The position numbers were made by a program, and so were the translations under genes. A stretch of DNA of 41,277 nucleotides from contig JAKZVH010000359.1 of the NCBI GenBank assembly GCA_047516145.1, positions 1-41,277 on the forward strand, read 5' to 3'. This stretch comes from Gammaproteobacteria bacterium. GTDB lineage: Bacteria; Pseudomonadota; Gammaproteobacteria; Steroidobacterales; Rariloculaceae. The notes beneath the pieces were generated by a model that had not been told where the DNA came from, made no database searches, and saw only the letters and a program-made list of their open reading frames with translations. Position 1 is the first letter of the stretch. Every line of letters begins with the position of its first letter. Shown one piece after another: positions 23,480-35,482 of the stretch.

Positions 23480-23567
23480 GGTCCGGATGTGGTGCGCGCC
23501 GCAGATTGATCGTGAAATATAGCATCCGTTGTTAAACTTCAGTGCAGAACACACTTCCCAGCAGGCG

Positions 23568-24806
23568 ATGAAAAAATACAGCACACCGATCCTCGCCGGA
23601 TTGTTGACCACCGGGCTGGGCTGGACCCACGCCCTGGCGCAATTGCCGCCCGTGCCGGTGCCCGCGGAAAACCCGATCACCGAGCCCAAGCGCGTGCTTG
23701 GCAAGATCCTCTTCTGGGACGAGCAGCTTTCCAGCGATGACACGCAGGCGTGCGGGACGTGTCATCGCCCCGCGGCCGGTGGTGCGGACCCCCGGTTCGG
23801 CCGTCATCGGGGTACCGACAAAGGCACCATCGACGATGTGTGGGGCTCGCCCGGCGTGGTGTTCATGAACGAGGCAGGCGAGCCGGTGGAGCATCCGGAT
23901 TTCGGCTTCGAGCCCCAGGTGACGCAGCGCATCGCGCCCTCGAACTTCGGCGCGCTGTGGGCGGATGAGGTCTTCTGGGACGGTCGGGCAGGATCGCGGT
24001 TCCTGGATCCGCTGACGGGGGAGGTCGCCATCGCCGCGGGCGGCGCGCTGGAGAATCAGGCCCTGAACTCGTTGTCGAATCCCGCCGAAATGACGCATCC
24101 CGGTCGCACCTGGGACGATCTCACCGAAAAACTCCGCCGCGTGCGGCCGCTTGCGCTGGCGTCCGATCTTCCGCCGGACGTGGCCGGCGCCCTGGCCGAG
24201 AACCCGGTCTATCCGGCGCTCTTCGATGCGGCATTCGAAGGGCCGGAAATCACGCCGGTGCGCATCGCCTTCGCCATCGCCGCGTACCAGCGAACCTTGG
24301 TCGCCGACCGGACGCCGTGGGATCGCTACATGGCCGGCGACGAGACCGCGCTTTCGCAGCCGGCGGTATTCGGATGGCAGGTGTTCCAGCGGTTGCGTTG
24401 CGTGAACTGCCATGAGCCGCCGCTATTCACCAACAACGATTTCCTGAACATTGGGCTGCGGCTCATGCGCTATGACTCCGGCCGCGAGGGCGTCACCCGG
24501 GATCCCGAAGACGGCGGCGAGATGAAGGTGCCGAGCCTGCGCAACGTCGGCTTGCGCACACGCCTCATGCACACCGGCGAATTCGGCCGCTTGAGCGAGG
24601 CGATCACTTTCTACAACATGGGCCTGGCGCTACCGGGCCTGGACGAAATCCCCGGGGTGGGTACCTACGTGTTCGACCTCACCGGCTATGACAGCTACGA
24701 TCTGGACGCCTTCCTGAAGTCGGCGCTGACCGATCCCCGGGTCGCCGCGGAGACCTATCCCTTTGATCGGCCGACGCTCGGAAGCGAGACAGGCGCATCC
24801 GATTGA
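23568..24806 (+). CDS. Di-heme cytochrome c peroxidase family protein (CCP/MauG-like)
   Basis: Signal peptide MKKYSTPILAGLLTTGLGWTHALA and two heme c motifs, CGTCH and CVNCH, with spacing typical of CCP. ORF 23529 was trimmed to the ATG at 23568. Confidence 0.85.
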   Translation: MKKYSTPILAGLLTTGLGWTHALAQLPPVPVPAENPITEPKRVLGKILFWDEQLSSDDTQACGTCHRPAAGGADPRFGRHRGTDKGTIDDVWGSPGVVFMNEAGEPVEHPDFGFEPQVTQRIAPSNFGALWADEVFWDGRAGSRFLDPLTGEVAIAAGGALENQALNSLSNPAEMTHPGRTWDDLTEKLRRVRPLALASDLPPDVAGALAENPVYPALFDAAFEGPEITPVRIAFAIAAYQRTLVADRTPWDRYMAGDETALSQPAVFGWQVFQRLRCVNCHEPPLFTNNDFLNIGLRLMRYDSGREGVTRDPEDGGEMKVPSLRNVGLRTRLMHTGEFGRLSEAITFYNMGLALPGLDEIPGVGTYVFDLTGYDSYDLDAFLKSALTDPRVAAETYPFDRPTLGSETGASD

Positions 24807-24862
24807 CAGCCGTGGCCGGACTCCGGCCGCAGATGCCTGCCCGGGTCAGACGACCTCACGCG

Positions 24863-26308
24863 TCAAAAAATGCCCGGCGCCGCCGGTCCCATCGGCAGAA
24901 CCGAGCCGTTGACCTCGATCACGCCGTTGTCGTAGGACCCTCGGAATCGATATCCCGATCCGGTTTCCTCAAGTATGCCCTGGCTCACCAGCCCGATCAG
25001 GGCCCCGCGAGCCTGAGCTTCCTCTGCGGGACTGAGTTGCCCCACGGCAGTATCCTCGCCCACGCCGCCGGCCGTAGCCGGGGTGGCAGTCCTGGCTAGA
25101 ACAACTCGAACGGCAATCCACTGGGCAAGATCGCGGTCCACGTCCAGTTCCGCGTCCACCGAGATCAGGCGGGGCCAGAGGCTCGAATTCAGCAGGGTGA
25201 ACTGCGATTGCGCCGGCAGCATCTCGTTATCGAAGCGGATGTTGACCGTGGTGTTGGAAGCCCCACCGTTCAGGTTGAAGCTGATGGGGCCGTACGTCAG
25301 CTCCGGCTCCGCCTCGATGAGTCGATAGACCAACCGCTCAACCTCGAGTACCAACGCCTCCGGGTCGAGAGTCACCGGATCGGCTCCCAGGAACCCCATG
25401 GCAAATTCCTGGTAGTCAATCAGTGCGTCCAGACTCAAGTTCCGCGCGGACATGTCGAATCTGGCGTCGGTGACGTTCATTCCCCCCACACTCAATGAAT
25501 CCGCAAACATTGCCGAGCTACCGTCGATTCGGTCACCGGCTTCATTCAATTCGGATTGGCCGCTCAGGCCAATATGGTCGGCGGCAATGGCTACGCCGCT
25601 GCCCGTAGCCGTGCCTTGCACTCGCCCGACCGAAAGATCCGTGGAGCCCGTCCACACGAACGGCGCGATTCGGGTCAAATCCACGGCGATGGCCAGATCC
25701 TCGGCCGTGAACGCCGTGTCCGCGGCCGCCAATTCGATCCGGTCCACGCGAGTCTCGCCGACCTGGCGCTGCCGCGCCGTGTTGAACGTGCCCTGACCGA
25801 CTATGCCCGATGAGCTGAAGGTCACTGCCGGCATCGCCACCGCCATCGGCGGCAATGTCCACCGCAACGAAGTCTCGCTTGAGAACCCGATTCGAGCGCG
25901 CACTTCGCCGGGTTCATCCATTCCGAGCCCGGCGAGCAGCGTGTCGAGCCCCGGGGTCCGCGGGTCCACGCGAAGCACCGCATCGGCCACACCGATGCCA
26001 ACGCCTCCGTCGGCAAACACGGGTCCGTGGGTGATGTCTACCGTCACGTCGATCGATTGGTCGAGCAGGCCCCGGTCGAATGGATCGACCGGGAGCGCGT
26101 CGAAGATTTCGCCGGGCGCCACAGCGAGCGTCGCGTGACTGCTTCTCCAGCCGCGCCGGTAGTCGGTGACCGCGAGTCGTATAAGCGTTTCGTCGCCAAG
26201 GGTTGTGGCCAGCGCCGTGATGCGACTCTGCGCCAGCACGCCGAGAAGCGCGGGGGATCCACCGGCAACGAGGGCGAGCAGGATTACGGCGGCAGCGGTT
26301 TTCTTCAT
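24863..26308 (-). CDS. YdgA-like (DUF945) envelope protein
   Basis: 481 aa with an N-terminal signal/anchor (MKKTAAAVILLALVAGG). The early ..YRRGWRSSHATL.. and the C-terminal ..YDNGVIEVNGSVLP.. resemble E. coli YdgA (YHRGVFSS.. and YANGQITLNGQKMS). AGGA lies 8 nt upstream of the ATG. Confidence 0.5.
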   Translation of the reverse strand: MKKTAAAVILLALVAGGSPALLGVLAQSRITALATTLGDETLIRLAVTDYRRGWRSSHATLAVAPGEIFDALPVDPFDRGLLDQSIDVTVDITHGPVFADGGVGIGVADAVLRVDPRTPGLDTLLAGLGMDEPGEVRARIGFSSETSLRWTLPPMAVAMPAVTFSSSGIVGQGTFNTARQRQVGETRVDRIELAAADTAFTAEDLAIAVDLTRIAPFVWTGSTDLSVGRVQGTATGSGVAIAADHIGLSGQSELNEAGDRIDGSSAMFADSLSVGGMNVTDARFDMSARNLSLDALIDYQEFAMGFLGADPVTLDPEALVLEVERLVYRLIEAEPELTYGPISFNLNGGASNTTVNIRFDNEMLPAQSQFTLLNSSLWPRLISVDAELDVDRDLAQWIAVRVVLARTATPATAGGVGEDTAVGQLSPAEEAQARGALIGLVSQGILEETGSGYRFRGSYDNGVIEVNGSVLPMGPAAPGIF

Positions 26309-26450
26309 GGCCGGATCCTGGATTCGGCGCCTGAACGTCTTCGCGACGATACTCGGTTAGCGATGCGGCCTTGCGGCTGACTGCATCCATTCCATGGGAC
26401 TTGCCGACGCCCTGAAAGTTCAGCTTTCGACCGGCGGAGCGGAAGACCGG

Positions 26451-28520
26451 TCAGAACAGCCATTTGGCGCCTACGCGAACCGTGCGCGGCTCGGTGGCTC
26501 GGCTCATCCGGCAATTCACGGTGGCGCAGTCGATATCCTCGGAAGTCAGGCCCGGAGGATCGAAACCCTCCACGTAGGCTTCGTACAAGTAAACGATGTC
26601 CTTGCCGTCGTTGTCCAGGAGATTGAACAGTTCCGCGTAGAGCGTGACGGAACCGAGCCGGTAGGATCCGCGGAGGTTGACCGTGGTGCTCGACCCGGCA
26701 CGGTGCTCGTTGTCGGGCGTCAGGGCGTAGGGGCCCAGGTAGCGAACCCGCAGCGCCGCTTCCCAGTTGTCCCTGACGGCGGAAAAGCCGATCTGGCTGG
26801 CATTCTCAAGCGACCCCTCGATGTGCCGGCCGTCCGGATTATCCACGTAGTGGGCCTGGTTATCGGTGAACACGGCATCGATCCCGAGCCAGGCCAGGGG
26901 CTTCCAGAACATCGTCAACTCGTATCCTTCCCGGTTCGATCCGCCCCGGGGTTCCACGGAGTTGGAATCGCCGACAAAGATGAGTTCGCTGTCCAGGTCG
27001 AGCCACCGGTAGGTGGTGGTCAACTTGATGTCGCCGAACTCGAACCGGGCACCGGCCTCGTAGCCCGTGCCCGGGGCCAGCCCTTGCAGCGGGTCCAGGT
27101 GGTTGACGACCCCGCGCGCGTCGTTGGAATGGAATCCACGCCCCCAACTCGCGTAAAGCTCAACGTGGTTGGACGCCGCGTAGGCGAGACCGGCGCTGGG
27201 CGAGACCAGACTGTCGCTGGCACTGCCCGCAAAGCTGGTCGGGTTGATCGCGTCGGCATCGAAGTCGTCGTTGTCGGCGCGCAACCCGGCGAGCAATCGC
27301 AGGTCCGGCGTGGGTAGCCAGGTCCCTTCCGCGTACAGGCCGAGGGACGTTTCCTTGACGGTGTTGTTGCTGATGTTGGCGATGAATTGCCCGGATTCGT
27401 TCTCGTCCAGCCCCACCGGGCCGATGTCGTCATGGCGAAATTCCGCGCCCACATCGAAACCCAGGTCGTACCGGTCGATCAGGGTGCGGTTGAAGCGCCC
27501 GCCCGCGGTCACTCGACGGTCGAACTGGTTAATCTGCGCATCGTAGGTCGGGTTCGACTGCATGTGCCAGTCGTAGAACTGAAGGTAAGCTGACGCGTCC
27601 CATTCGACGGCGGTCAGCTGCGTGCCGGCAATCCACCGGCGGGTGTTGCCGGCGGCGGTTGGATCCAGCGAACAGTACGCGTCGGGGCAGACCGAACTGC
27701 CGATGGTTCGTTCCGGAACCTGCTCGGTCGGATGCCAGTCTCCCTCGTAACCGGACAGGGTGAAGGAAACCGAGCCGAAGTCGGTGGGCTTGAGGTATTT
27801 CCCCTAAACCGAGACGTGTTTCAGGTCCTCGTCCCGCTGCCATGGGCCACCGCAGGTCTTGAATTCTCCGACGGTGGTCAGGGCGCCGTCGCCGATCCCG
27901 GTGGTCGAGCCCGCCGCAAGCCGGCCCCAATTGTTCTCCCCGCTCTCAAGCGAGAGAAAATTGCTATCCAGCCGGTCGATGGTGCGGATGAACGAAGCCG
28001 CCGCCATGGAGAAATCCCCGACATCGGCGCGGTAGGGCCCCTTGCCGTAATCGATTCGGTCGACGATCTCGGGCAGAAGCCCGTTCACATCCAGATAGCC
28101 CTGGCCGTGGCCATGGGAGCGCAGGTTCCACGGCACCCCGTCGATGTACGTGGTGAAGTCGGTGCCGTGATCCAGGTTGAACCCGCGCAGGAAATACTGG
28201 TTGGCCTTGCCGCTGCCGGAGTGCTGCACCGCGACCATCCCGGGGACCGCCTCCAGCAGTTCCGCCACGCGCAGCAGGGGGCGCACCAGGAGATCGGCGC
28301 CGCCCACGGAGCCTTCGCTGGCGGCCCGGGCGGATCCGACCGGTTCGGTGTTGCGGCCGAATACGATAACCTCTTCCATCGCGCCTGCGCCGCTGGTGAC
28401 CGTCTGCGCGCCTCCCGTCCCGGTGACCAGCATTGCCGGGAGACACGCAATCAGCGTCGTCACCGCGATCGGATCGGCGGCAGAAGTAGAGCATCGGCGA
28501 GCGATGCGGTCTCGATCCAT
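26451..28520 (-). pseudogene. TonB-dependent receptor interrupted by one in-frame TAG (27806-27804)
   Basis: ORFs 27804..28520 and 26451..27563 are in the same frame. The first carries the plug (EEVIVFGRN, NQYFLRGFNLDHGTD, GHGQGYLDVN). The second carries the barrel and ends ..VRVGAKWLF. My manual translation of 27803-27564 shows no further stop (GKYLKPTDFGSVSFTLSGYEGDWHPTEQ..YLQFYDWHMQSN), so a single TAG separates the two halves. Confidence 0.75.
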
Positions 28521-28609
28521 GGCAGCGGATTCCTCATGGGCGGCGGGCAGGCCTCCCCGCCGGAGCGATTCAGGGTGAGGGTTCCACCCGGGATTTGTAA
28601 GTTCAGGAA

Positions 28610-28639
28610 GGTTCGTTAACTGTTAACGGAACCGTTAAC
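28610..28639 (-). promoter_or_regulatory. Triple GTTAAC motif / imperfect 11-bp-arm dyad upstream of the TonB receptor gene
   Basis: GTTAAC occurs at 28615-20, 28622-27 and 28634-39. CGTTAACTGTTAACG (28614-28628) is a perfect palindrome. It extends to GGTTCGTTAAC-T-GTTAACGGAACC with one bulged base. The element lies 90-120 nt upstream of the ATG at 28520. Confidence 0.4.
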
Positions 28640-28641
28640 CG

Positions 28642-28658
28642 GCGCCCGCGGCGGGCGC
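28642..28658 (-). terminator. GC-rich hairpin immediately after the stop of the 132-aa gene
   Basis: GCGCCCGC-G-GCGGGCGC forms perfect 8-nt arms beginning 4 nt after the stop codon (28665-28663). There is no clear U-tract, so terminator activity is uncertain. Confidence 0.3.
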
Positions 28659-28662
28659 GAAG

Positions 28663-29061
28663 TCACTGCCGGGTGCGAAATATCTCGCGGGTTGGATCGC
28701 GCTCGCGCACCACCATGCCATCTTCGCGAACGGCTTCGACAAAGCGCAGGTTTCTCTCCCGGTAGCCCACGCGCCCGGTCAGTTGAATTTCCATGCCTTC
28801 CTGCAACCATTCGAGTTCAAAGCCCTGGCGCTGGAGCGCGATCAGGGCAAGGAGTTCCACCAGCCATTCCTCGGTGTCGCCGGCTTCGTTTTCGACCTGC
28901 AGAACGAAGGTGCAATGCGGATTCACCCAGCGTAGATCCGTGATCGTGCCGTCGAGCACGATTTCTTCCCGGGAAAAATTCAGCGCCACCGAATGGTGTG
29001 CCTGCAGCGTGACCGGCACGCAAGAAACAAGTCCAATCAGTAGCAGTCGAAGTATCGTCAT
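28663..29061 (-). CDS. Small secreted protein, DUF6152-like, with predicted mature N-terminus HHS
   Basis: Signal peptide MTILRLLLIGLVSCVPVTLQA followed by HHSVALNF..G.I..L.WVNPH. It is a paralog of 34008..34448. The DUF6152 name is from memory and has not been searched. Confidence 0.7.
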   Translation of the reverse strand: MTILRLLLIGLVSCVPVTLQAHHSVALNFSREEIVLDGTITDLRWVNPHCTFVLQVENEAGDTEEWLVELLALIALQRQGFELEWLQEGMEIQLTGRVGYRERNLRFVEAVREDGMVVRERDPTREIFRTRQ

Positions 29062-29071
29062 TGTCGGTGCC

Positions 29072-29761
29072 CTATCCCTGCTGCTCCGGAGGGTCGGGAA
29101 TGCAACCGTAGACGGTGAATGCGAAGTCCGACCTCAAGTAGCGATTCGTCGATTCGAGCGGGGCCGCGAGGGTGATGGGATCGACATAGCGGATTTCCAC
29201 TACCAGTCGATCCTGTTCATCCCTGTGGATGCGCTCGATGCTGCGCAACGCTTCGGATTGGGGGAAATAGCGCAGCAACGTGGTGATATAGCCCGGCGCG
29301 TAGCCGAGCGTTTCGATGACCAGGGCATCGACGTCGTACCAGCCGATGGAATGCCCCATCGTCGGCATGGGCTCGCCGTCAAGATTGACCGTGCTGGGTT
29401 CGGGCTGCGGCGGGTGACCGCGCTGATCGAGGTGGACCGTTCGCGTCAGGTCGAACATCTCGTAGCGGATGACCACTCGGTCCTCGAACTGGCTGATCTC
29501 CACCGTTGTATCGGGTTCGTCCCACGCCCTGCCGAGACCGGATGGCACGCAAAAGTAGCTGGGATCGTCAGTCGACGGGTTGTATGCGTCGGTACGGCGT
29601 TGTCCTTCCTCGGTGTATCGGGGCTCGGAGTATTGCCGGAACAGGGAGGGGTCGATGCCCCACACACCCTCCAGATCGGGCTCGGCGACCGCCGCGCACC
29701 ACGGAACGAGCCATCCGCCAATCAGGAAACCAACGATGTGTCTGAAGCGATTTCTTGCCAT
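29072..29761 (-). CDS. Secreted protein of unknown function
   Basis: ORF 29072..29821 was trimmed to the ATG at 29761. The signal peptide is MARNRFRHIVGFLIGGWLVPWCAAVA. Conserved-looking blocks include EGVWG, DDPSYFCVPSGLGR and GHSIGWYDVDALVIETLG. It ends 10 nt upstream of the DUF6152-like gene. Confidence 0.65.
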   Translation of the reverse strand: MARNRFRHIVGFLIGGWLVPWCAAVAEPDLEGVWGIDPSLFRQYSEPRYTEEGQRRTDAYNPSTDDPSYFCVPSGLGRAWDEPDTTVEISQFEDRVVIRYEMFDLTRTVHLDQRGHPPQPEPSTVNLDGEPMPTMGHSIGWYDVDALVIETLGYAPGYITTLLRYFPQSEALRSIERIHRDEQDRLVVEIRYVDPITLAAPLESTNRYLRSDFAFTVYGCIPDPPEQQG

Positions 29762-29795
29762 GGTGCTGCGCCAGCGCTTCGCCATTATATTCGGA

Positions 29796-30641
29796 CTACG
29801 GAGTGGCGGGGACGTTTTCATGAATTCTGGAACTCAGCGGGAACCCGGGGCTATCCAGCTCCCGTACGTTCACGACGACTGGCAGAGTAAAGGGATCGCC
29901 GAGGCGAGCGGGCAGCAACGACGTAACCCAGATACGGCCGACGCCCCTGGCCGACGCCGTCAACGTCCTGCCGTCGCGTTCGAAGGCCGCCATGTCCACG
30001 AAACCTTGCGGGCCTTCGAGTTCGAGCCGCAGCGGCGCCCGTTCCACCAATTCGCCCGAGGCATTGTAGGCTCGGACGGTGAGTTCAGCCAGATCGAACG
30101 ACTCACCCACCCTGAGTTCCACGACCGTGGGCTCGATCTCAAGCCGATTGACCCGCATCCCCAGGCTTGCGCCCAGGGCGGGTTGAGCGCCGAAGGTCAA
30201 TTCGATGCCGCTGTCGTCGCGGCGCGTGGAGAACGCGTCGTGCAGGGGCGCCTTGAACACGGGGGTCGGCGCCCGGGACGCGCGGCGCTGCGGGATCACC
30301 CGACCGCCGGGTCCGATCGCCCAGGGCTCGTCGGGATCGAGTCGAGGGTTGCGGGGATCGATCGCGACGATGGCGACGATGGGATCGAAACCCGGCGGAA
30401 ACACCGGCGTCGTGTCCGCGTCGATTTCCGGATCGTCACTTGCCGCGATCTCCGGGTCGATTGCGCTGTGCGGATCGGGCAGCTCCACCGACTGAGCTGC
30501 CGCCGGCCCGGCCAGGCACCACCACAGCACCGCCAACCCCGCGGCTCCCGGAATCGGCAGCGATTTTCGCCTGGGACTCACAGGCGGCTCCATGGTGGAC
30601 GGCGCACGCGATACAGTCATGGGATTATTCCGCACCCTCAC
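29796..30641 (-). CDS. Secreted protein of unknown function, with an Asp/Pro-rich linker and a possible Ig-like C-terminal domain
   Basis: Signal peptide ..RRKSLPIPGAAGLAVLWWCLAGPAAA-QS. The true start is probably the ATG at 30593 or 30620 rather than 30641, which overlaps the mscS-family gene. The C-terminal LEIEPTVVELRVGESFDLAELTVRAYNASGELV resembles Big_2-type strands. Confidence 0.6.
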   Translation of the reverse strand: MRVRNNPMTVSRAPSTMEPPVSPRRKSLPIPGAAGLAVLWWCLAGPAAAQSVELPDPHSAIDPEIAASDDPEIDADTTPVFPPGFDPIVAIVAIDPRNPRLDPDEPWAIGPGGRVIPQRRASRAPTPVFKAPLHDAFSTRRDDSGIELTFGAQPALGASLGMRVNRLEIEPTVVELRVGESFDLAELTVRAYNASGELVERAPLRLELEGPQGFVDMAAFERDGRTLTASARGVGRIWVTSLLPARLGDPFTLPVVVNVRELDSPGFPLSSRIHENVPATP

Positions 30642-31944
30642 CCGATAGTTCTCGCCGCGACGGATCCATGATGAGCTGGCGATGGGGATACGGAATCTGG
30701 ATCCCGTGTTCCTTGAACGCGTCCCACAGCGCCAGCAATACCTTGCCCCGGATGTTGGTCAGCCCGCTTTGCGGATCGCTGATCCAGAAGCGCAGCTTGA
30801 AGTCCAGCGACGAATCCCCGAATCCCGTGAGCCAGCAAACAGGGGCTCGATAGCTGGTAGCCACTCGACCCACGCTCGCGGTCGCCTCGATGGCGATGCG
30901 GGCAACTTCGTGGGGGTCGGAGTTGTAGGCGACCCCGAAGGGAACATCGAGCCGGACGAATTTATCGGAGAACGACCAGTTGATCACTTGGGTGGTGATG
31001 AAGTCCTCGTTGGGTATGAGGAATTCGCGGCCGTCACGCGTGACCACGGAGACGAAGCGGGCACGAAGCTCCCGTATCCAACCGAACGTCTCGCCGAGCG
31101 TGACGGTATCGCCTGGCTTGATCGACTGGTCCATGAGGATGATGATCCCGGAGATGAAATTGGAGACGACCTTCTGCAATCCAAAACCGATGCCGACGCC
31201 GACGGCGCCGGAGAGCACGGTGAACGCGGTGAGGTCGATTCCGAGGCCGGACAGCGCCACCATGGCGGCGATCACGATCAACGTGATCCGCATGATCTTG
31301 CCGATCAGGACACGCAGCGACGGCGTCAGATCCTCGATACTCTGGATGCGCCGGTCGAGGAAATTCCCGACCGTCAGCGACAGCCAAAGCAGCACGCCCA
31401 GCAGGAAGACCGCCTGCACCACGCTCAGGAGCGAAAGGCGGAACGAACCGAGGGTGAAGCCGGCGCCGTCCAGCAATGCGGATACGTCGTCCGCCATCCC
31501 GAGTACTGCCGCGGCGACATACAACCAGGCAATGAGGGCGAACGCGCGGCCGATCGCGCGACTGCGGATCACGTGGGAGACAACCGTGATCACCAGCCAC
31601 GCCGCCGCCAGCAACATGGCGCTGTAGACCAGGTAGTTGCTCGCGGGCCACTGTGCGGCGGTCGTCCCCAGGTAGGCGCCGGCCAGGAGGGTTACGAAGA
31701 ACAACCACTCGAGCCGATTCAGGAACCCGTTCACCAGCCGCAGCACGCCCGGCACGCCCGGCATGCCCTTGAGGTCGCCGGCCCACGCCACGAGCCGCGG
31801 TTCGACCCGCCAAGACAGCACCAGCGCCGGCAGGAACAGGACGGTGATCATCGCGAGCTGGATGAGGACCGCAGGGCTGCCGACAAGGCCCCACGCGCGC
31901 AGGCCGTAGTCGGCGAGAGTGGAAATGATCTGCTCCCAGTTCAT
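30625..31944 (-). CDS. Mechanosensitive ion channel (MscS family)
   Basis: Multiple N-terminal TM helices, then the MscS core GLQKVVSNFISGIIILMDQSIKPGDTV..GWIRELRARFVSVVTRDGREFLIPN. Confidence 0.88.
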   Translation of the reverse strand: MNWEQIISTLADYGLRAWGLVGSPAVLIQLAMITVLFLPALVLSWRVEPRLVAWAGDLKGMPGVPGVLRLVNGFLNRLEWLFFVTLLAGAYLGTTAAQWPASNYLVYSAMLLAAAWLVITVVSHVIRSRAIGRAFALIAWLYVAAAVLGMADDVSALLDGAGFTLGSFRLSLLSVVQAVFLLGVLLWLSLTVGNFLDRRIQSIEDLTPSLRVLIGKIMRITLIVIAAMVALSGLGIDLTAFTVLSGAVGVGIGFGLQKVVSNFISGIIILMDQSIKPGDTVTLGETFGWIRELRARFVSVVTRDGREFLIPNEDFITTQVINWSFSDKFVRLDVPFGVAYNSDPHEVARIAIEATASVGRVATSYRAPVCWLTGFGDSSLDFKLRFWISDPQSGLTNIRGKVLLALWDAFKEHGIQIPYPHRQLIMDPSRRELSGEGAE

Positions 31945-31954
31945 GGCTTACCCG

Positions 31955-33322
31955 TTACAGCAGCAGCACTGCGGCCAGTCCCAGAAAAACGTAGAACCCC
32001 ACCATATCCGTGACCGATGTCAAGAGCGCGCTCGAGGCCACGGCGGGGTCGAAACCGAGTCGCTGGAGCACCACGGGCAGCACGCTTCCGGTGAGCCCGG
32101 CCGCGAGGAAATTGATGCCCGTGGCGAGGGCGATGACGCCGCCGAGTGCCGGGCTCGAGAACCACACCCACGCCACGCCGCCGATCAGAATGGCGAAGAG
32201 CAACCCGTTGATGCCGCTCACCAGAAGCTCCTTGCGGATCGCACGCACGGCATTCACTGGCGTCAGCTCCTTTACCGCGATGGCGCGCACGGCGACGGTG
32301 AGCGCCTGAATACCCGCCGTCCCGCCCATGGTCGCAACGATGGGCATGAGGATGGCCAGCGCCACCAGTTCCTCGATCGTGCCGGCGAATACGCTGATGA
32401 CCCCCGCGGTGGCGATGGCGGCGACGAGGTGGATCATCAGCCAGATAAATCGGGAACGCGTCGTATCCATGATCGCCTGGAAGAGATTGTCTTCCGAACC
32501 GACGCCGGCGAGTGCCATGATGTCCTCTTCGTGCTCCTCGTGAATGACGTCGACCACGTCGTCGACGGTGATCGCGCCCAGAAGCCGCCCCTCCGCGTCG
32601 ACCACCGGCGCGGAAATCAGGTCTCGCTGCCGGAACAGGAAGGCCACTTCTTCCTGGTCCATGTCGGCGGGAATGATTCGCAGATCCGCGCGCGCGATCG
32701 CGGTGAGCGCAACGCCACGGGGAGTTCGCAGAACCCGGCTCAGCGGGATCGTGCCGATGGGACGACAGGTTTGGTCGATCAGGAACAGATCGAAAAAGTC
32801 AGCCGGCAGATCCTCCCCGTCACGCAGGTAGTCGATGGCCTGGCCGACGTTCCAGTTGTCCGGCAGCGCCACCACCTGGCGCTGCATGAGCCGCCCGGCG
32901 CTATCCTCGGGGAAGGCCAGCCCTTCCTGGATCCGTGTGCGGCGGATTTGGGGCAGCACATCCAGAAAGGCCTGCTGCGCGTCCGCATCGAGCGCCTCGA
33001 CGATCTCGACCGCATCGTCGGTCGGCATGGACGCCACCGCTTCGGCCGCTTGGGCCAGCCCGAGTTGCCGGATCACGCGTTCGGCCACGGCATCGCCGAG
33101 TTCCGCAAGAATTCGGGGATCGAACGGCTCGCGCAGCGTGTCCACCAGACTTTCCCGCTCCACCCGGGACACCCGTTCCAGCAAGTCGGCGCTGTCGGAC
33201 GGGTGCAGCGACTGCACCAGTTGTCCGGCCGTCTCCAACTCGCCGGCCCGCAGCGCCTCGATGACTTCGGCGACCGAGGCCGCCGGGAGCGCACCCTTAT
33301 CGTCGTTGCGGTCAAATTTCAT
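31955..33322 (-). CDS. mgtE: Magnesium transporter MgtE
   Basis: MgtE N-domain, CBS pair (..ISAPVVDAEGRLLGAITVDDVVDVIHEEHEEDI) and a C-terminal five-TM channel domain. The start was chosen at the ATG at 33322. The longer ORF from 33370 would overlap the divergent gene. Confidence 0.9.
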   Translation of the reverse strand: MKFDRNDDKGALPAASVAEVIEALRAGELETAGQLVQSLHPSDSADLLERVSRVERESLVDTLREPFDPRILAELGDAVAERVIRQLGLAQAAEAVASMPTDDAVEIVEALDADAQQAFLDVLPQIRRTRIQEGLAFPEDSAGRLMQRQVVALPDNWNVGQAIDYLRDGEDLPADFFDLFLIDQTCRPIGTIPLSRVLRTPRGVALTAIARADLRIIPADMDQEEVAFLFRQRDLISAPVVDAEGRLLGAITVDDVVDVIHEEHEEDIMALAGVGSEDNLFQAIMDTTRSRFIWLMIHLVAAIATAGVISVFAGTIEELVALAILMPIVATMGGTAGIQALTVAVRAIAVKELTPVNAVRAIRKELLVSGINGLLFAILIGGVAWVWFSSPALGGVIALATGINFLAAGLTGSVLPVVLQRLGFDPAVASSALLTSVTDMVGFYVFLGLAAVLLL

Positions 33323-33359
33323 ACTGGGACTATAATGCGGTTCGACTGTCGCTGATACG

Positions 33360-33890
33360 GTGACCGACATGAGAAATATGATCCCGGCCCTGTTCCTGGC
33401 AGGCTCGTTCTCGCTCTGTGGTGCGGTGCTTGCGCAGGACTCCCCGGCCGGCGACGAGACGGACCCGGATGAGGTTGTCGAGGCGGACTATTCGCTCGAT
33501 CGCGAGGGCGAGCGGTGCATCAATACCAGGGCGATCCGTGACACGGACATTGTCGATGAACGCACCATCCTTTTCGAGATGCGTGGCGGCGTCCACTACG
33601 TCAATTACCTGCGCCACGACTGCCGGAGTCTGCTGCGCGAGGAGCGCTTTTCGTACCGGATCACCGGAGGACGCCTGTGCTCGGTGGATACGATCCGCGT
33701 GCTCGAAGATTTCGGGGGATTCATCCAGGAGGGCATGTCCTGCGGACTGGGATCCTTTTACCCCATCACCGAGGAGGAAGCCGAGATTCTCGCCCTCGAG
33801 CCCGAGGAGCGCCGTGGCCGACCGCAGTTCCGGGTGGTGAATCCCAATGCAGGCGAGGTGGATGAAGAGGCGGACGAGCGCGCCGAATAA
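33360..33890 (+). CDS. Small secreted Cys-containing protein, DUF6491-like
   Basis: Signal peptide (MTD)MRNMIPALFLAGSFSLCGAVLA-QD. The pattern C-INTRAIRDTDIVDERTILF..G..Y.N.L...C..L....RFSY....GRLC..D.I matches my recollection of DUF6491. It has an acidic C-terminal tail. The start may be the ATG at 33369. Confidence 0.6.
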   Translation: MTDMRNMIPALFLAGSFSLCGAVLAQDSPAGDETDPDEVVEADYSLDREGERCINTRAIRDTDIVDERTILFEMRGGVHYVNYLRHDCRSLLREERFSYRITGGRLCSVDTIRVLEDFGGFIQEGMSCGLGSFYPITEEEAEILALEPEERRGRPQFRVVNPNAGEVDEEADERAE

Positions 33891-34007
33891 TCTCGGGAAA
33901 ACTTCAGAAAAATATAGCTCAGCGGTATTTCGCCGAAACGGCGGCGATGCAAGAATTGAATCGTACCGAAACGACCTACTGGCAGAATCGCTACCGGGGA
34001 GCCAACG

Positions 34008-34448
34008 ATGAGACATTCGATCGCGACACTATCCGCCGTAACGCTGTCCTTGCAGGTCGCTACGGCACAAGCCCATCACTCCTGGTCCGTGGACTACGAT
34101 ACGCGCAGCTCCATCGTGGTGGAAGGCGTCGTGTCGGAGTACCTGGGTCGCCGGCCCCATCCCTCCATGACCCTTGAAGTGCAGGGCGAGGATGGCACCG
34201 TCGAGCAATGGACCGCCGAATGGAACGGCAGCTTCATTGACGCCTCCGGGCAGTCGTACCAACCGGACGTGTTCGGTCCCGGCGAGACGATCGCCATCAC
34301 CGGACAGCCGCATCGCAACGAAGGCACGAATTTCGTTCGCATTCGATCCGTGGTACGCGAGGCAGACGGCGCAACGTTCGAAAGCCGCCGCCGCGGCGAT
34401 GGCCGCGCCGACGGCCGCGGCAACGATCGGAACCGCCGGAGGCGATAG
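34008..34448 (+). CDS. Small secreted protein, DUF6152-like paralog, with predicted mature N-terminus HHS and an Arg/Gly/Asp-rich tail
   Basis: Signal peptide MRHSIATLSAVTLSLQVATAQA followed by HHSWSVDY..IVVEGVV..PH..EQW. It is alignable by eye with 28663..29061. The C-terminus is RRRGDGRADGRGNDRNRRRR. Confidence 0.7.
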   Translation: MRHSIATLSAVTLSLQVATAQAHHSWSVDYDTRSSIVVEGVVSEYLGRRPHPSMTLEVQGEDGTVEQWTAEWNGSFIDASGQSYQPDVFGPGETIAITGQPHRNEGTNFVRIRSVVREADGATFESRRRGDGRADGRGNDRNRRRR

Positions 34449-34468
34449 CGGTCCGGGAACGCGACCGC

Positions 34469-35482
34469 TCACTCGTCGCCGGAGTCGAGGATCTCCGCCA
34501 CCTCCACCGCCCGGCCTTCCCTGGCAGACCTCACGCCGGCGCGGATCACGGCCAGGGATTCGGTGGCTCGCCGGGCGCCCACCTCGGGCGTGGCCTCGCC
34601 GCGAACGCAGGCGGCGAACTCCTCCAGCTCCTCTACCAGCGTGTCGTTCTTCTCGCAGGGAACGGGTGTGCTTCGGGTACTTCCGCGGCGCAAATGCCGC
34701 AGGCCGCCGAACAGGTCGAAGTAGGCGCTGGCTTCCTTGCCGTAGACGTTCACCATGTAGTACTCCGATGCGGAGGCATAGCTGGCCGTCAGGTTCGAGA
34801 CGGCGCCGCTGTCGTGCTCCAGGATCAGGTTCGCGATATCCGGGTTGTCGCCGGGGAGTACGAGCCGTGCCGTCGTGGCCGAGACGCGCCGCACGGCGCC
34901 GAGGAGCATTTCCAGCACGTCCGTGTAGTGGATCCCGATTTGCAGCATCACGCCACCGGGCATGCCCGCGGACTGATACCTCCACGAACCGGTATCGATC
35001 TTCCCGAGCCGATCCCGGCTGATATTCGCTTCGGCCTGGACCAGACGGCCGAATCGCCCGGCCTCGATCTCGCGCTTGATCCAGCGGAAATGACTTTCGC
35101 GCCGGCGTTGGTAGCCCACCGACAGCACGATTCCGCTGGTCTCCGCGATCCTGGCAATGGCTTTGCCGTCGGCGACGGTGTTGGCGATGGGTTTGTCGAG
35201 AAAAACGTGCTTGCCGGCGGCGGCCGCCAGAGCCACGGTTTCCAGGTGCACGGAATTCGGCGTGGTGTTGACGATTCCCCGGATTGAGTCATCGGCGAGA
35301 ATCGCTTCGTAGCTGGCCGCTGGCCTGCAGCCGTACTTTCGCGCGAACGCGGCGCGCTTGTCCCCGGATCGCGTATAGCAGGCGGCGATCTCGATATCCC
35401 GGGTTCGGCCGGCGGCATCGGCGAGCACGTCCGACCACCACCCCATGCCGAGGGACGCGACACGTACAGGTTCCGCGCTCAT
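34469..35482 (-). CDS. Gfo/Idh/MocA-family NAD(P)-dependent oxidoreductase
   Basis: N-terminal Rossmann segment VRVASLGMGWWSDVLA, then HVFLDKPIA and the typical C-terminal alpha/beta domain. 337 aa. Confidence 0.85.
   Translation of the reverse strand: MSAEPVRVASLGMGWWSDVLADAAGRTRDIEIAACYTRSGDKRAAFARKYGCRPAASYEAILADDSIRGIVNTTPNSVHLETVALAAAAGKHVFLDKPIANTVADGKAIARIAETSGIVLSVGYQRRRESHFRWIKREIEAGRFGRLVQAEANISRDRLGKIDTGSWRYQSAGMPGGVMLQIGIHYTDVLEMLLGAVRRVSATTARLVLPGDNPDIANLILEHDSGAVSNLTASYASASEYYMVNVYGKEASAYFDLFGGLRHLRRGSTRSTPVPCEKNDTLVEELEEFAACVRGEATPEVGARRATESLAVIRAGVRSAREGRAVEVAEILDSGDE

Follow-up and report, generated by a model that had tools for sequence, protein, structure and literature searches.

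Four exported protein families with a metal-binding N-terminal histidine, the anglerases included, are described in passages of one paper, in which nickel is documented for DUF4198 and DUF6702, and DUF4198 is reported next to TonB receptors (PMC12537917). DUF6152 is not named in the passages of that paper drawn upon here, and a literature search found no paper naming it. A further described group is that of the histidine-brace copper proteins, which includes the lytic polysaccharide monooxygenases, CopC and YcnI (PMC10952591). The subject of the present analysis is a pair of adjacent genes on contig JAKZVH010000359.1 of the gammaproteobacterial metagenome-assembled genome (MAG) GCA_047516145.1, whose 41,277 nucleotides, taken as a whole, are termed the window. 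The pair encodes a 229-aa exported barrel protein (29072–29761, minus strand; the longest open reading frame, ORF, is 249 aa) and, after a 10-nt gap, a 132-aa exported DUF6152 protein predicted to begin His-His-Ser (HHS) once its signal peptide is removed (28663–29061, minus strand). It lies in a row of eight minus-strand genes (24863–33370), for which a sequence-only reading had proposed that three secreted proteins and a TonB-dependent receptor form one uptake or processing system. The conserved core of this row is the barrel and DUF6152 only, adjacent in either order or fused. We consider it fairly probable that the row is a genus-level mosaic rather than one system, with the pair as its unit and a mechanism involving metal and ligand that is itself inferred.

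In common with the exported N-terminal-histidine metal binders, DUF6152 proteins have a signal peptide, a conserved first histidine, a further histidine in the domain and a periplasmic or secreted location. They differ in having two consecutive histidines, a calycin-like barrel partner, and an oligonucleotide/oligosaccharide-binding (OB) barrel in place of the β-sandwich, and their metal site is a candidate suggested by sequence. In sequence they would also fit the histidine-brace pattern of an N-terminal and a second histidine, given a predicted cleavage site and a tip modelled with a predicted local distance difference test (pLDDT) score of 48, whereas the immunoglobulin/cupredoxin-like β-sandwich of brace proteins is replaced in the models by the OB fold.

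The modelled barrel resembles those of the calycins (fatty acid- and retinoic acid-binding proteins, FABP/CRABP; lipocalins, avidins and nitrophorins) in being an antiparallel β-barrel that follows short helices, but at about 200 residues it is larger than the FABPs, has a predicted disulphide (C71–C220) and always has DUF6152 as its partner. In ZinT/YodA, a single-chain periplasmic protein, a calycin-like barrel is joined to an N-terminal His-rich metal-binding segment; this protein is not among the 50 best Foldseek matches, and the histidines of the module lie on a separate OB domain beside a barrel without conserved histidine. The Bug/TctC proteins are a large lineage-specific family of periplasmic binding proteins, with tens to hundreds of exported paralogs scattered among catabolic genes. 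The scatter of paralogs is alike here, whereas the fold of the module is unrelated and it carries a candidate metal site.

The barrel–DUF6152 pair as the conserved unit

The two parts of the pair occur elsewhere as a single polypeptide, since alignment reveals fusions of ~347 aa with DUF6152 at the N-terminal end and the 229-aa barrel domain at the C-terminal end. About twenty of the 120 homologues of the 229-aa protein are proteins of this length carrying PF19649 (DUF6152), and a search with one fusion as the query returned 1,494 proteins at E ≤ 1e-5. Pfam annotates the fusions over only a third of their length; the window proteins share the His-His and Asn-Pro-His of PF19649, and the barrel partner is not in Pfam. 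In other genomes, whose loci are numbered from L001, the closest relative of the window DUF6152 protein is encoded directly after the 229-aa gene in 19 of 26 loci (L001–L009, L012–L020 and L022), and many of the 26 hold additional, distant pairs in either gene order. The suggestion that the 229-aa and HHS genes are a tight functional pair is thus well borne out, by the 1,494 fusion matches and by this adjacency.

Within the window's own genome there are 56 fusions, DUF6152 coming first in every one, together with adjacent pairs in both orders (13 DUF6152-then-barrel, 11 the reverse) and genes standing alone (24 for DUF6152, 16 for the barrel). Over 80 modules the pairwise identities of the DUF6152 and barrel parts are correlated (Mantel r = 0.59, a value reached in 0 of 999 permutations), and on a paralog tree of the concatenated domains a minimum of 12 changes from fused to split or back is required, against an average of 22.6 with shuffled labels. 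Because identities co-vary and switching has been repeated, the two domains are taken to duplicate and evolve together, their covalent joining being interchangeable, and the two separately exported proteins probably act as one periplasmic protein.

The genome holds about 80 modules, fused or adjacent, of which the window pair is one; it belongs to an old and well-conserved orthologue group. Orthologous pairs in ten other loci (L012–L020 and L022), Arenicellaceae MAGs included, are 55–72% identical to it, compared with only ~27% for paralogs. Ten different gene sets flank these orthologues, with CstA, an amidohydrolase, M20 and M24 peptidases, a metallo-beta-lactamase, DnaE, a tannase, SnoaL, PrpD and an AMP-binding enzyme among their products. 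In the window's own genome, the 95 genes flanking modules match 127 Pfam families, none of them more than three times; Sulfatase and GST_N_2 are tied as the commonest, with three members each. A conserved third partner of the module was rejected on the strength of these ten flank sets and 127 families, as was a MauG/MbnH-like enzyme as a general partner, there being only two copies of it in the genome.

The scale of the family is considerable. This MAG, at 3.0 Mb and 77% completeness, holds 104 DUF6152 matches and 97 matches to the barrel domain. All 18 sampled genomes of the window's bacterial family have between 42 and at least 112 DUF6152 matches each, with up to ~255 candidates at a first look; 11 of 12 other families of the same order have no DUF6152 match, and among 120 other families of the class, represented by one genome each, two genomes have a match, in single copy. 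DUF6152 is among the largest gene families in this lineage, and its expansion there is extreme and lineage-specific. The barrel family comprises 14,104 clusters at 50% identity (E ≤ 1e-3), so that what emerges is a very large two-part family whose second domain is without a database model. On one marine (Tara) contig (L029:5059–14585), an array spanning 5 kb consists of three fusions together with two DUF6152 and two barrel genes that stand alone, and a TonB-dependent receptor gene directly follows a further fusion.

The TonB-dependent receptor and its upstream element

Beyond the pair, separated from the DUF6152 gene by a spacer of 142 nt, lies a gene for a TonB-dependent receptor (26451–28520, minus strand; Plug PF07715, 4e-13; barrel PF00593, 2.3e-30). 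Its frame contains one stop in 690 codons, a TAG at 27804–27806 (minus strand) in the sequence GTT TAG GGG, which replaces a conserved tryptophan codon: the orthologues at L003, L007 and L008, which are 81–83% identical, all have tryptophan where the window has TAG, giving a TGG to TAG change. The receptor is probably a recent pseudogene.

Its presence varies among the nine syntenic relatives (L001–L009), MAGs close to the window genome whose 229-aa proteins are 76–85% identical. It is intact in L003, L007 and L008, in fragments in L001, and absent from L002, L004, L005, L006 and L009, and where it is lacking, a DUF945 gene or a MauG-like gene comes directly after the pair. The expected conserved co-occurrence is consequently found for the pair, in 19 of 26 loci and in fusions, but not for a cluster with the receptor, which is intact in three of nine relatives and missing beside the orthologous pair in the ten other loci. 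In L001 (11191–11954) the receptor is reduced to three short fragments, an erosion that differs from the point mutation in the window.

The spacer holds, at 28592–28639 (minus strand), three GTTAAC repeats followed by AACCTTCCTGAACTTACAAATC. These together make up one well-conserved block in the otherwise divergent spacers of the window, L003, L007 and L008, and no such block can be recognised in L001, whose receptor has decayed. Since it is conserved only in loci with the receptor, the receptor has its own control region, and the block is a candidate operator and promoter for a regulator on the basis of its sequence; its GAAC-containing part we take to resemble the −35 region of extracytoplasmic function (ECF) sigma factors. 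Immediately before it, a perfect 7-bp GC hairpin (GCGCCCG-CCG-CGGGCGC, 28642–28658, minus strand) lies 4 nt past the DUF6152 stop with no T-run after it, and was not called by the terminator scan. The receptor is best regarded as a decaying neighbour and not as a partner of the pair, and annotation can say so.

Other receptors of this genome show comparable lesions. On contig C312 (minus strand), a second TonB-dependent receptor has an in-frame TAG at a conserved tryptophan (peptide VRWVSPGDSSLR*LVGASYFDF), the tryptophan being conserved in paralogs on contigs C21 and C390 and in locus L026, and a third receptor, on contig C370, is frameshifted. Recoding of TAG was rejected: the codon ends five of eight inspected barrel genes, stops listed within matches to the module family proved to be natural gene ends, and there is no tRNA-CUA among 38 tRNAs. 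With TAG an ordinary stop in this genome and no tRNA to read it, the TAGs in receptors are explained as nonsense mutations, and together with the frameshift they suggest an ongoing loss of receptors in the lineage.

Folds, invariant residues and a possible metal site

The sequence-only reading had placed all three secreted proteins outside families of known function, and this stands insofar as none belongs to a characterised family, although the HHS protein is a member of a family, DUF6152, that has no assigned function (PF19649, 7.5e-16, 58.5 bits, against a gathering cut-off of 27 bits). The two DUF6152 proteins of the window read LQA-HHS...NPH for the member of the pair, and AQA-HHS...RPH for a second, 146-aa paralog (34008–34448, plus strand; 2.5e-13, 50.3 bits) with no barrel partner alongside. 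Among 105 paralogs of this genome, whose median identity is ~29%, the histidines H22, H23 and H49 are 98, 97 and 99% conserved; the Asn-Pro-His motif is kept at 92, 99 and 99% for its three residues, and one tryptophan at 95%. The residue at −1 to His-His is alanine, glycine or serine in 96 of 101 paralogs and that at −3 is small or aliphatic, while the distance from the first methionine to His-His has a median of 24 aa. Because these −3 and −1 residues fit the signal-peptidase rule, and the distance from methionine is of this length, His-His is very likely the N-terminus of the mature protein.

A search of PDB sequences with a DUF6152 profile gave nothing significant. Structural information has come instead from a model of a natural fusion, a 347-aa relative (pLDDT 85; predicted template modelling score, pTM, 0.80). 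Foldseek matches for its DUF6152 part are OB folds, namely SSB, PriB and the anticodon-binding domain of LysRS, and those for the remainder are FABP/CRABP, so that models give an OB fold for the DUF6152 domain.

The 229-aa protein contains the motifs EGVWG, DDPSYFCVPSGLGR and GHSIGWYDVDALVIETLG. It has no match in Pfam or NCBIfam, nothing usable coming up even with E up to 10; 23 members of its family have no Pfam match at E ≤ 5, calycin models included, and the family profile finds nothing significant among PDB sequences (best E 1.7). The AlphaFold2 model (pLDDT 84, pTM 0.80) has CRABP2 and myelin P2 as its top nine Foldseek matches in the PDB, and NanoLuc, FABP1, nitrophorin and avidin come next; the best match has E 8e-4 and template modelling (TM) scores of 0.39 and 0.60 when normalised to the query and the target, respectively. 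Modelling thus gives a calycin-type antiparallel β-barrel, FABP-like in character; a structural search for this protein yields modest calycin matches, and a confident sequence match is not found. In a 98-row alignment of barrels from the window's own genome, W34, C71, R107, G136, S138, E176, R177, D194 and C220 are each kept in 78–95 rows (W34 in 78, R177 in 79), and G140 also belongs to the conserved set. The tryptophan of the first strand and the late arginine may be akin to the calycin signature, and C71 and C220 probably form a disulphide pair, to judge from their conservation.

These features allow a mechanism to be proposed. Cleavage of the signal peptide would leave the OB domain with a free His-His N-terminus exposed, and by analogy the first and second histidines, together with the histidine of the near-invariant Asn-Pro-His, may hold a transition-metal ion; metal binding is suggested because exported proteins that bind metals are marked by a conserved histidine directly behind the signal peptide. 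A small organic ligand would sit in the barrel, the fixed polar residues R107, S138, E176 and D194 recognising a common chemical group and the variable remainder of the sequence tuning each paralog to a different compound. A metal centre of the N-terminal His-His and the Asn-Pro-His histidine, built on an OB fold, would then act on the small molecule held in the calycin barrel. That such modules form a new class of metalloproteins in the periplasm, perhaps enzymes, with 100–250 substrate-specific copies per genome in this bacterial family, is put forward as a tentative possibility.

About 16% of this genome is situated within 3 kb of a module. Random placement predicts 4.4 of the 24 receptors at that distance or less, and 10 are observed there (P about 0.007); for the 20 sulfatases and a distance of 1 kb it predicts 2.3, and 7 are observed (P about 0.007). 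Receptors and sulfatases are therefore weakly enriched near modules, at about two to three times chance. This agrees with a family whose task is to deal with compounds reaching the periplasm, and not with a one-to-one partnership with receptors. Binding or processing of such compounds after their entry is the probable role of the family, and it would explain the proximity of both classes of gene. The proposed link to import accordingly survives at the level of the genome, and falls for this particular receptor as a partner. Were the His-His tip to bind metal and the barrel substrates, the family would be a major, so far unrecognised element in the use of organic matter by these marine and sponge-associated bacteria. 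As a new metalloprotein it would be a major and hitherto unseen way of dealing with organic matter that has been imported, sulfated compounds for example, and metal sites based on an N-terminal histidine would gain a new protein scaffold.

Several points weigh against the reading of the row as a mosaic around a metal- and ligand-binding pair. Metal and ligand binding are inferred from models and analogy, and the fusion model is unreliable precisely at the His-His tip (mean pLDDT 48 over residues 21–30). The likeness to calycins is modest, given a TM score of 0.39 when normalised to the query, and the barrel itself offers no conserved histidine, H137 in the GHS motif of the window protein being histidine, tyrosine or aspartate among paralogs. 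About 100 copies per genome fit poorly with a simple role as metal chaperone. The enrichment tests rest on a simple random-placement null, in a fragmented, 77%-complete MAG, for two families chosen from leads. Finally, the short gaps and the lack of predicted terminators permit co-transcription from mgtE to DUF6152, and with it a local functional link.

Of the explanations that treat the row as a unit, the proposal that the three secreted proteins and the receptor form one dedicated system, capturing or modifying a substrate for uptake, can draw on the common direction and tight spacing of the genes, on the excess of receptors near modules genome-wide, and on two loci: in L029 a fusion is directly followed by a receptor, and in L027 the second gene downstream of a fusion is a receptor-like one of 1,296 aa. 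The trio is nonetheless retained where the receptor is gone (five relatives) or fragmentary (L001); the receptor carries a nonsense codon, and the 142-nt spacer before it has an element found only where a receptor exists; the 281-aa gene, the third of the trio, lies apart from the pair in L077 and L080; no receptor stands beside the orthologous pair in the ten other loci; and ~80 modules face only 24 receptors in the genome. We regard a single uptake system as unlikely, and with the receptor missing from five of nine relatives, interrupted by a stop and preceded by an element of its own, this part of the sequence-only reading is not upheld. A divalent-metal homeostasis operon, in which DUF6152 and the barrel would be periplasmic metal chaperones or buffers for MgtE (magnesium, cobalt, nickel) and the second DUF6152 and a four-Cys protein would belong to the same regulon, appears very unlikely. 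A His-His N-terminus is typical of metal binders, as passages of PMC12537917 indicate, mgtE, mscS, the 281-aa gene and the pair are spaced by no more than 34 nt, and a DUF6152 gene lies on each side of mgtE in L001, L003, L005, L006 and L008; yet synteny with mgtE is confined to L001–L009, a chaperone for one transporter does not explain ~100 diversified paralogs, and elsewhere the neighbours are sulfatases, peptidases and amidohydrolases.

It is also conceivable, though doubtful, that the modules bind or carry hydrophobic or amphipathic compounds in the periplasm without any metal, their histidines being structural or serving contact between the partners. In its modelled fold the family resembles carriers of the FABP, CRABP and lipocalin type, the barrel keeps its arginine, glutamate, aspartate and serine set invariant but has no conserved histidine, and large numbers of paralogs are typical of substrate-binding families. 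Three histidines conserved at 97–99%, two of them at the predicted cleavage site, are nevertheless hard to explain by structure alone, and the known exported families with a conserved first histidine, as described in passages of PMC12537917, bind metals. The mosaic reading is preferred because the presence of the receptor varies, its tryptophan codon has become TAG, it has an element of its own, the 281-aa gene separates from the pair, and the pair itself is found with ten different sets of flanking genes.

Remaining genes of the row and its surroundings

All eight genes of the row were confirmed on the minus strand, and the order mgtE, mscS, 281-aa gene, 229-aa gene, HHS gene, spacer, receptor and YdgA-like gene is supported by gene calls and Pfam. 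The first of these, mgtE (31955–33370, minus strand), matches Pfam MgtE (9e-29, 100.7 bits) together with MgtE_N and CBS, and its stop lies 10 nt before the start of a gene for an MscS-family mechanosensitive channel (30625–31944, minus strand; MS_channel_1st, 2nd and 3rd, with 66.8 bits for MS_channel_2nd). Next comes the ORF of the 281-aa secreted protein (29796–30641, minus strand), with a GTG start and a 17-nt overlap with the mscS stop; an alternative internal ATG at 30590 would give a cleaner signal peptide and a gap of 34 nt from mscS. A further gap of 34 nt separates the 281-aa stop from the start of the 229-aa gene. As these gaps are short and no terminators are predicted, the genes from mgtE to DUF6152 are likely co-transcribed in the window. 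A scan of the window for promoters and terminators gave nothing beyond chance, and Rfam has no match over 24000–35000.

This arrangement is local to one group of relatives. The layout of mgtE, mscS, 281-aa gene and pair is found only in L001–L009, with the exceptions that mgtE is truncated in L007 and the locus ends at the 281-aa gene in L002. No mgtE was found in L010–L026, nor in L077 or L080, and none was called in L027–L036. In more distant relatives mscS, the 281-aa gene and DUF945 are likewise not found next to the pair. Both mgtE and mscS are neighbours with ordinary roles in ion homeostasis, and in this genus they are probably transcribed together with the pair.

The 281-aa protein, single-copy in the genome, has an acidic, proline-rich N-terminal half and a conserved C-terminal half. 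It has no match in Pfam or NCBIfam, with nothing usable at E up to 10, none of its 65 homologues has a precomputed Pfam domain, and profile searches of PDB sequences with its family gave nothing significant. The possible Ig-like domain once suggested for it did not hold up, as the only matches are to Big_3 below threshold (E 0.015–0.14, 12.9–16 bits, against a cut-off of 21.2) and there is no match in the PDB. In the distant locus L077 its gene has an orthologue of the second DUF6152 gene on one side and a MauG-like gene on the other, in L080 it is directly followed by DUF945, and in neither is mscS, mgtE or the pair adjoining. It is a separate protein, restricted to this lineage.

At the other end of the row, past the receptor, lies the gene of a DUF945 (YdgA-like) protein (24863–26308, minus strand; PF06097, 1e-51, 176.9 bits), which occupies varying positions in five of the nine syntenic relatives. 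Next to it, on the plus strand, a MauG/MbnH-like di-haem peroxidase gene (23529–24806) stays nearby in eight of the nine close relatives (L002–L009) and in L077; what separates it from the 281-aa gene differs from one relative to another, genes being present in some and absent in others. Divergent from mgtE is a gene for a 176-aa four-Cys protein (33360–33890), single-copy in the genome and situated upstream of the second DUF6152 gene, for which Pfam and NCBIfam give nothing usable with E up to 10. The second DUF6152 gene itself has orthologues in L001, L003, L005–L008 and the distant L077. Elsewhere in the genome, on contig C94 (minus strand), a sodium:solute symporter-like membrane protein apparently continues in sequence across an in-frame TAG (peptide GAGVVLLGAL*WRRATTLAAW).

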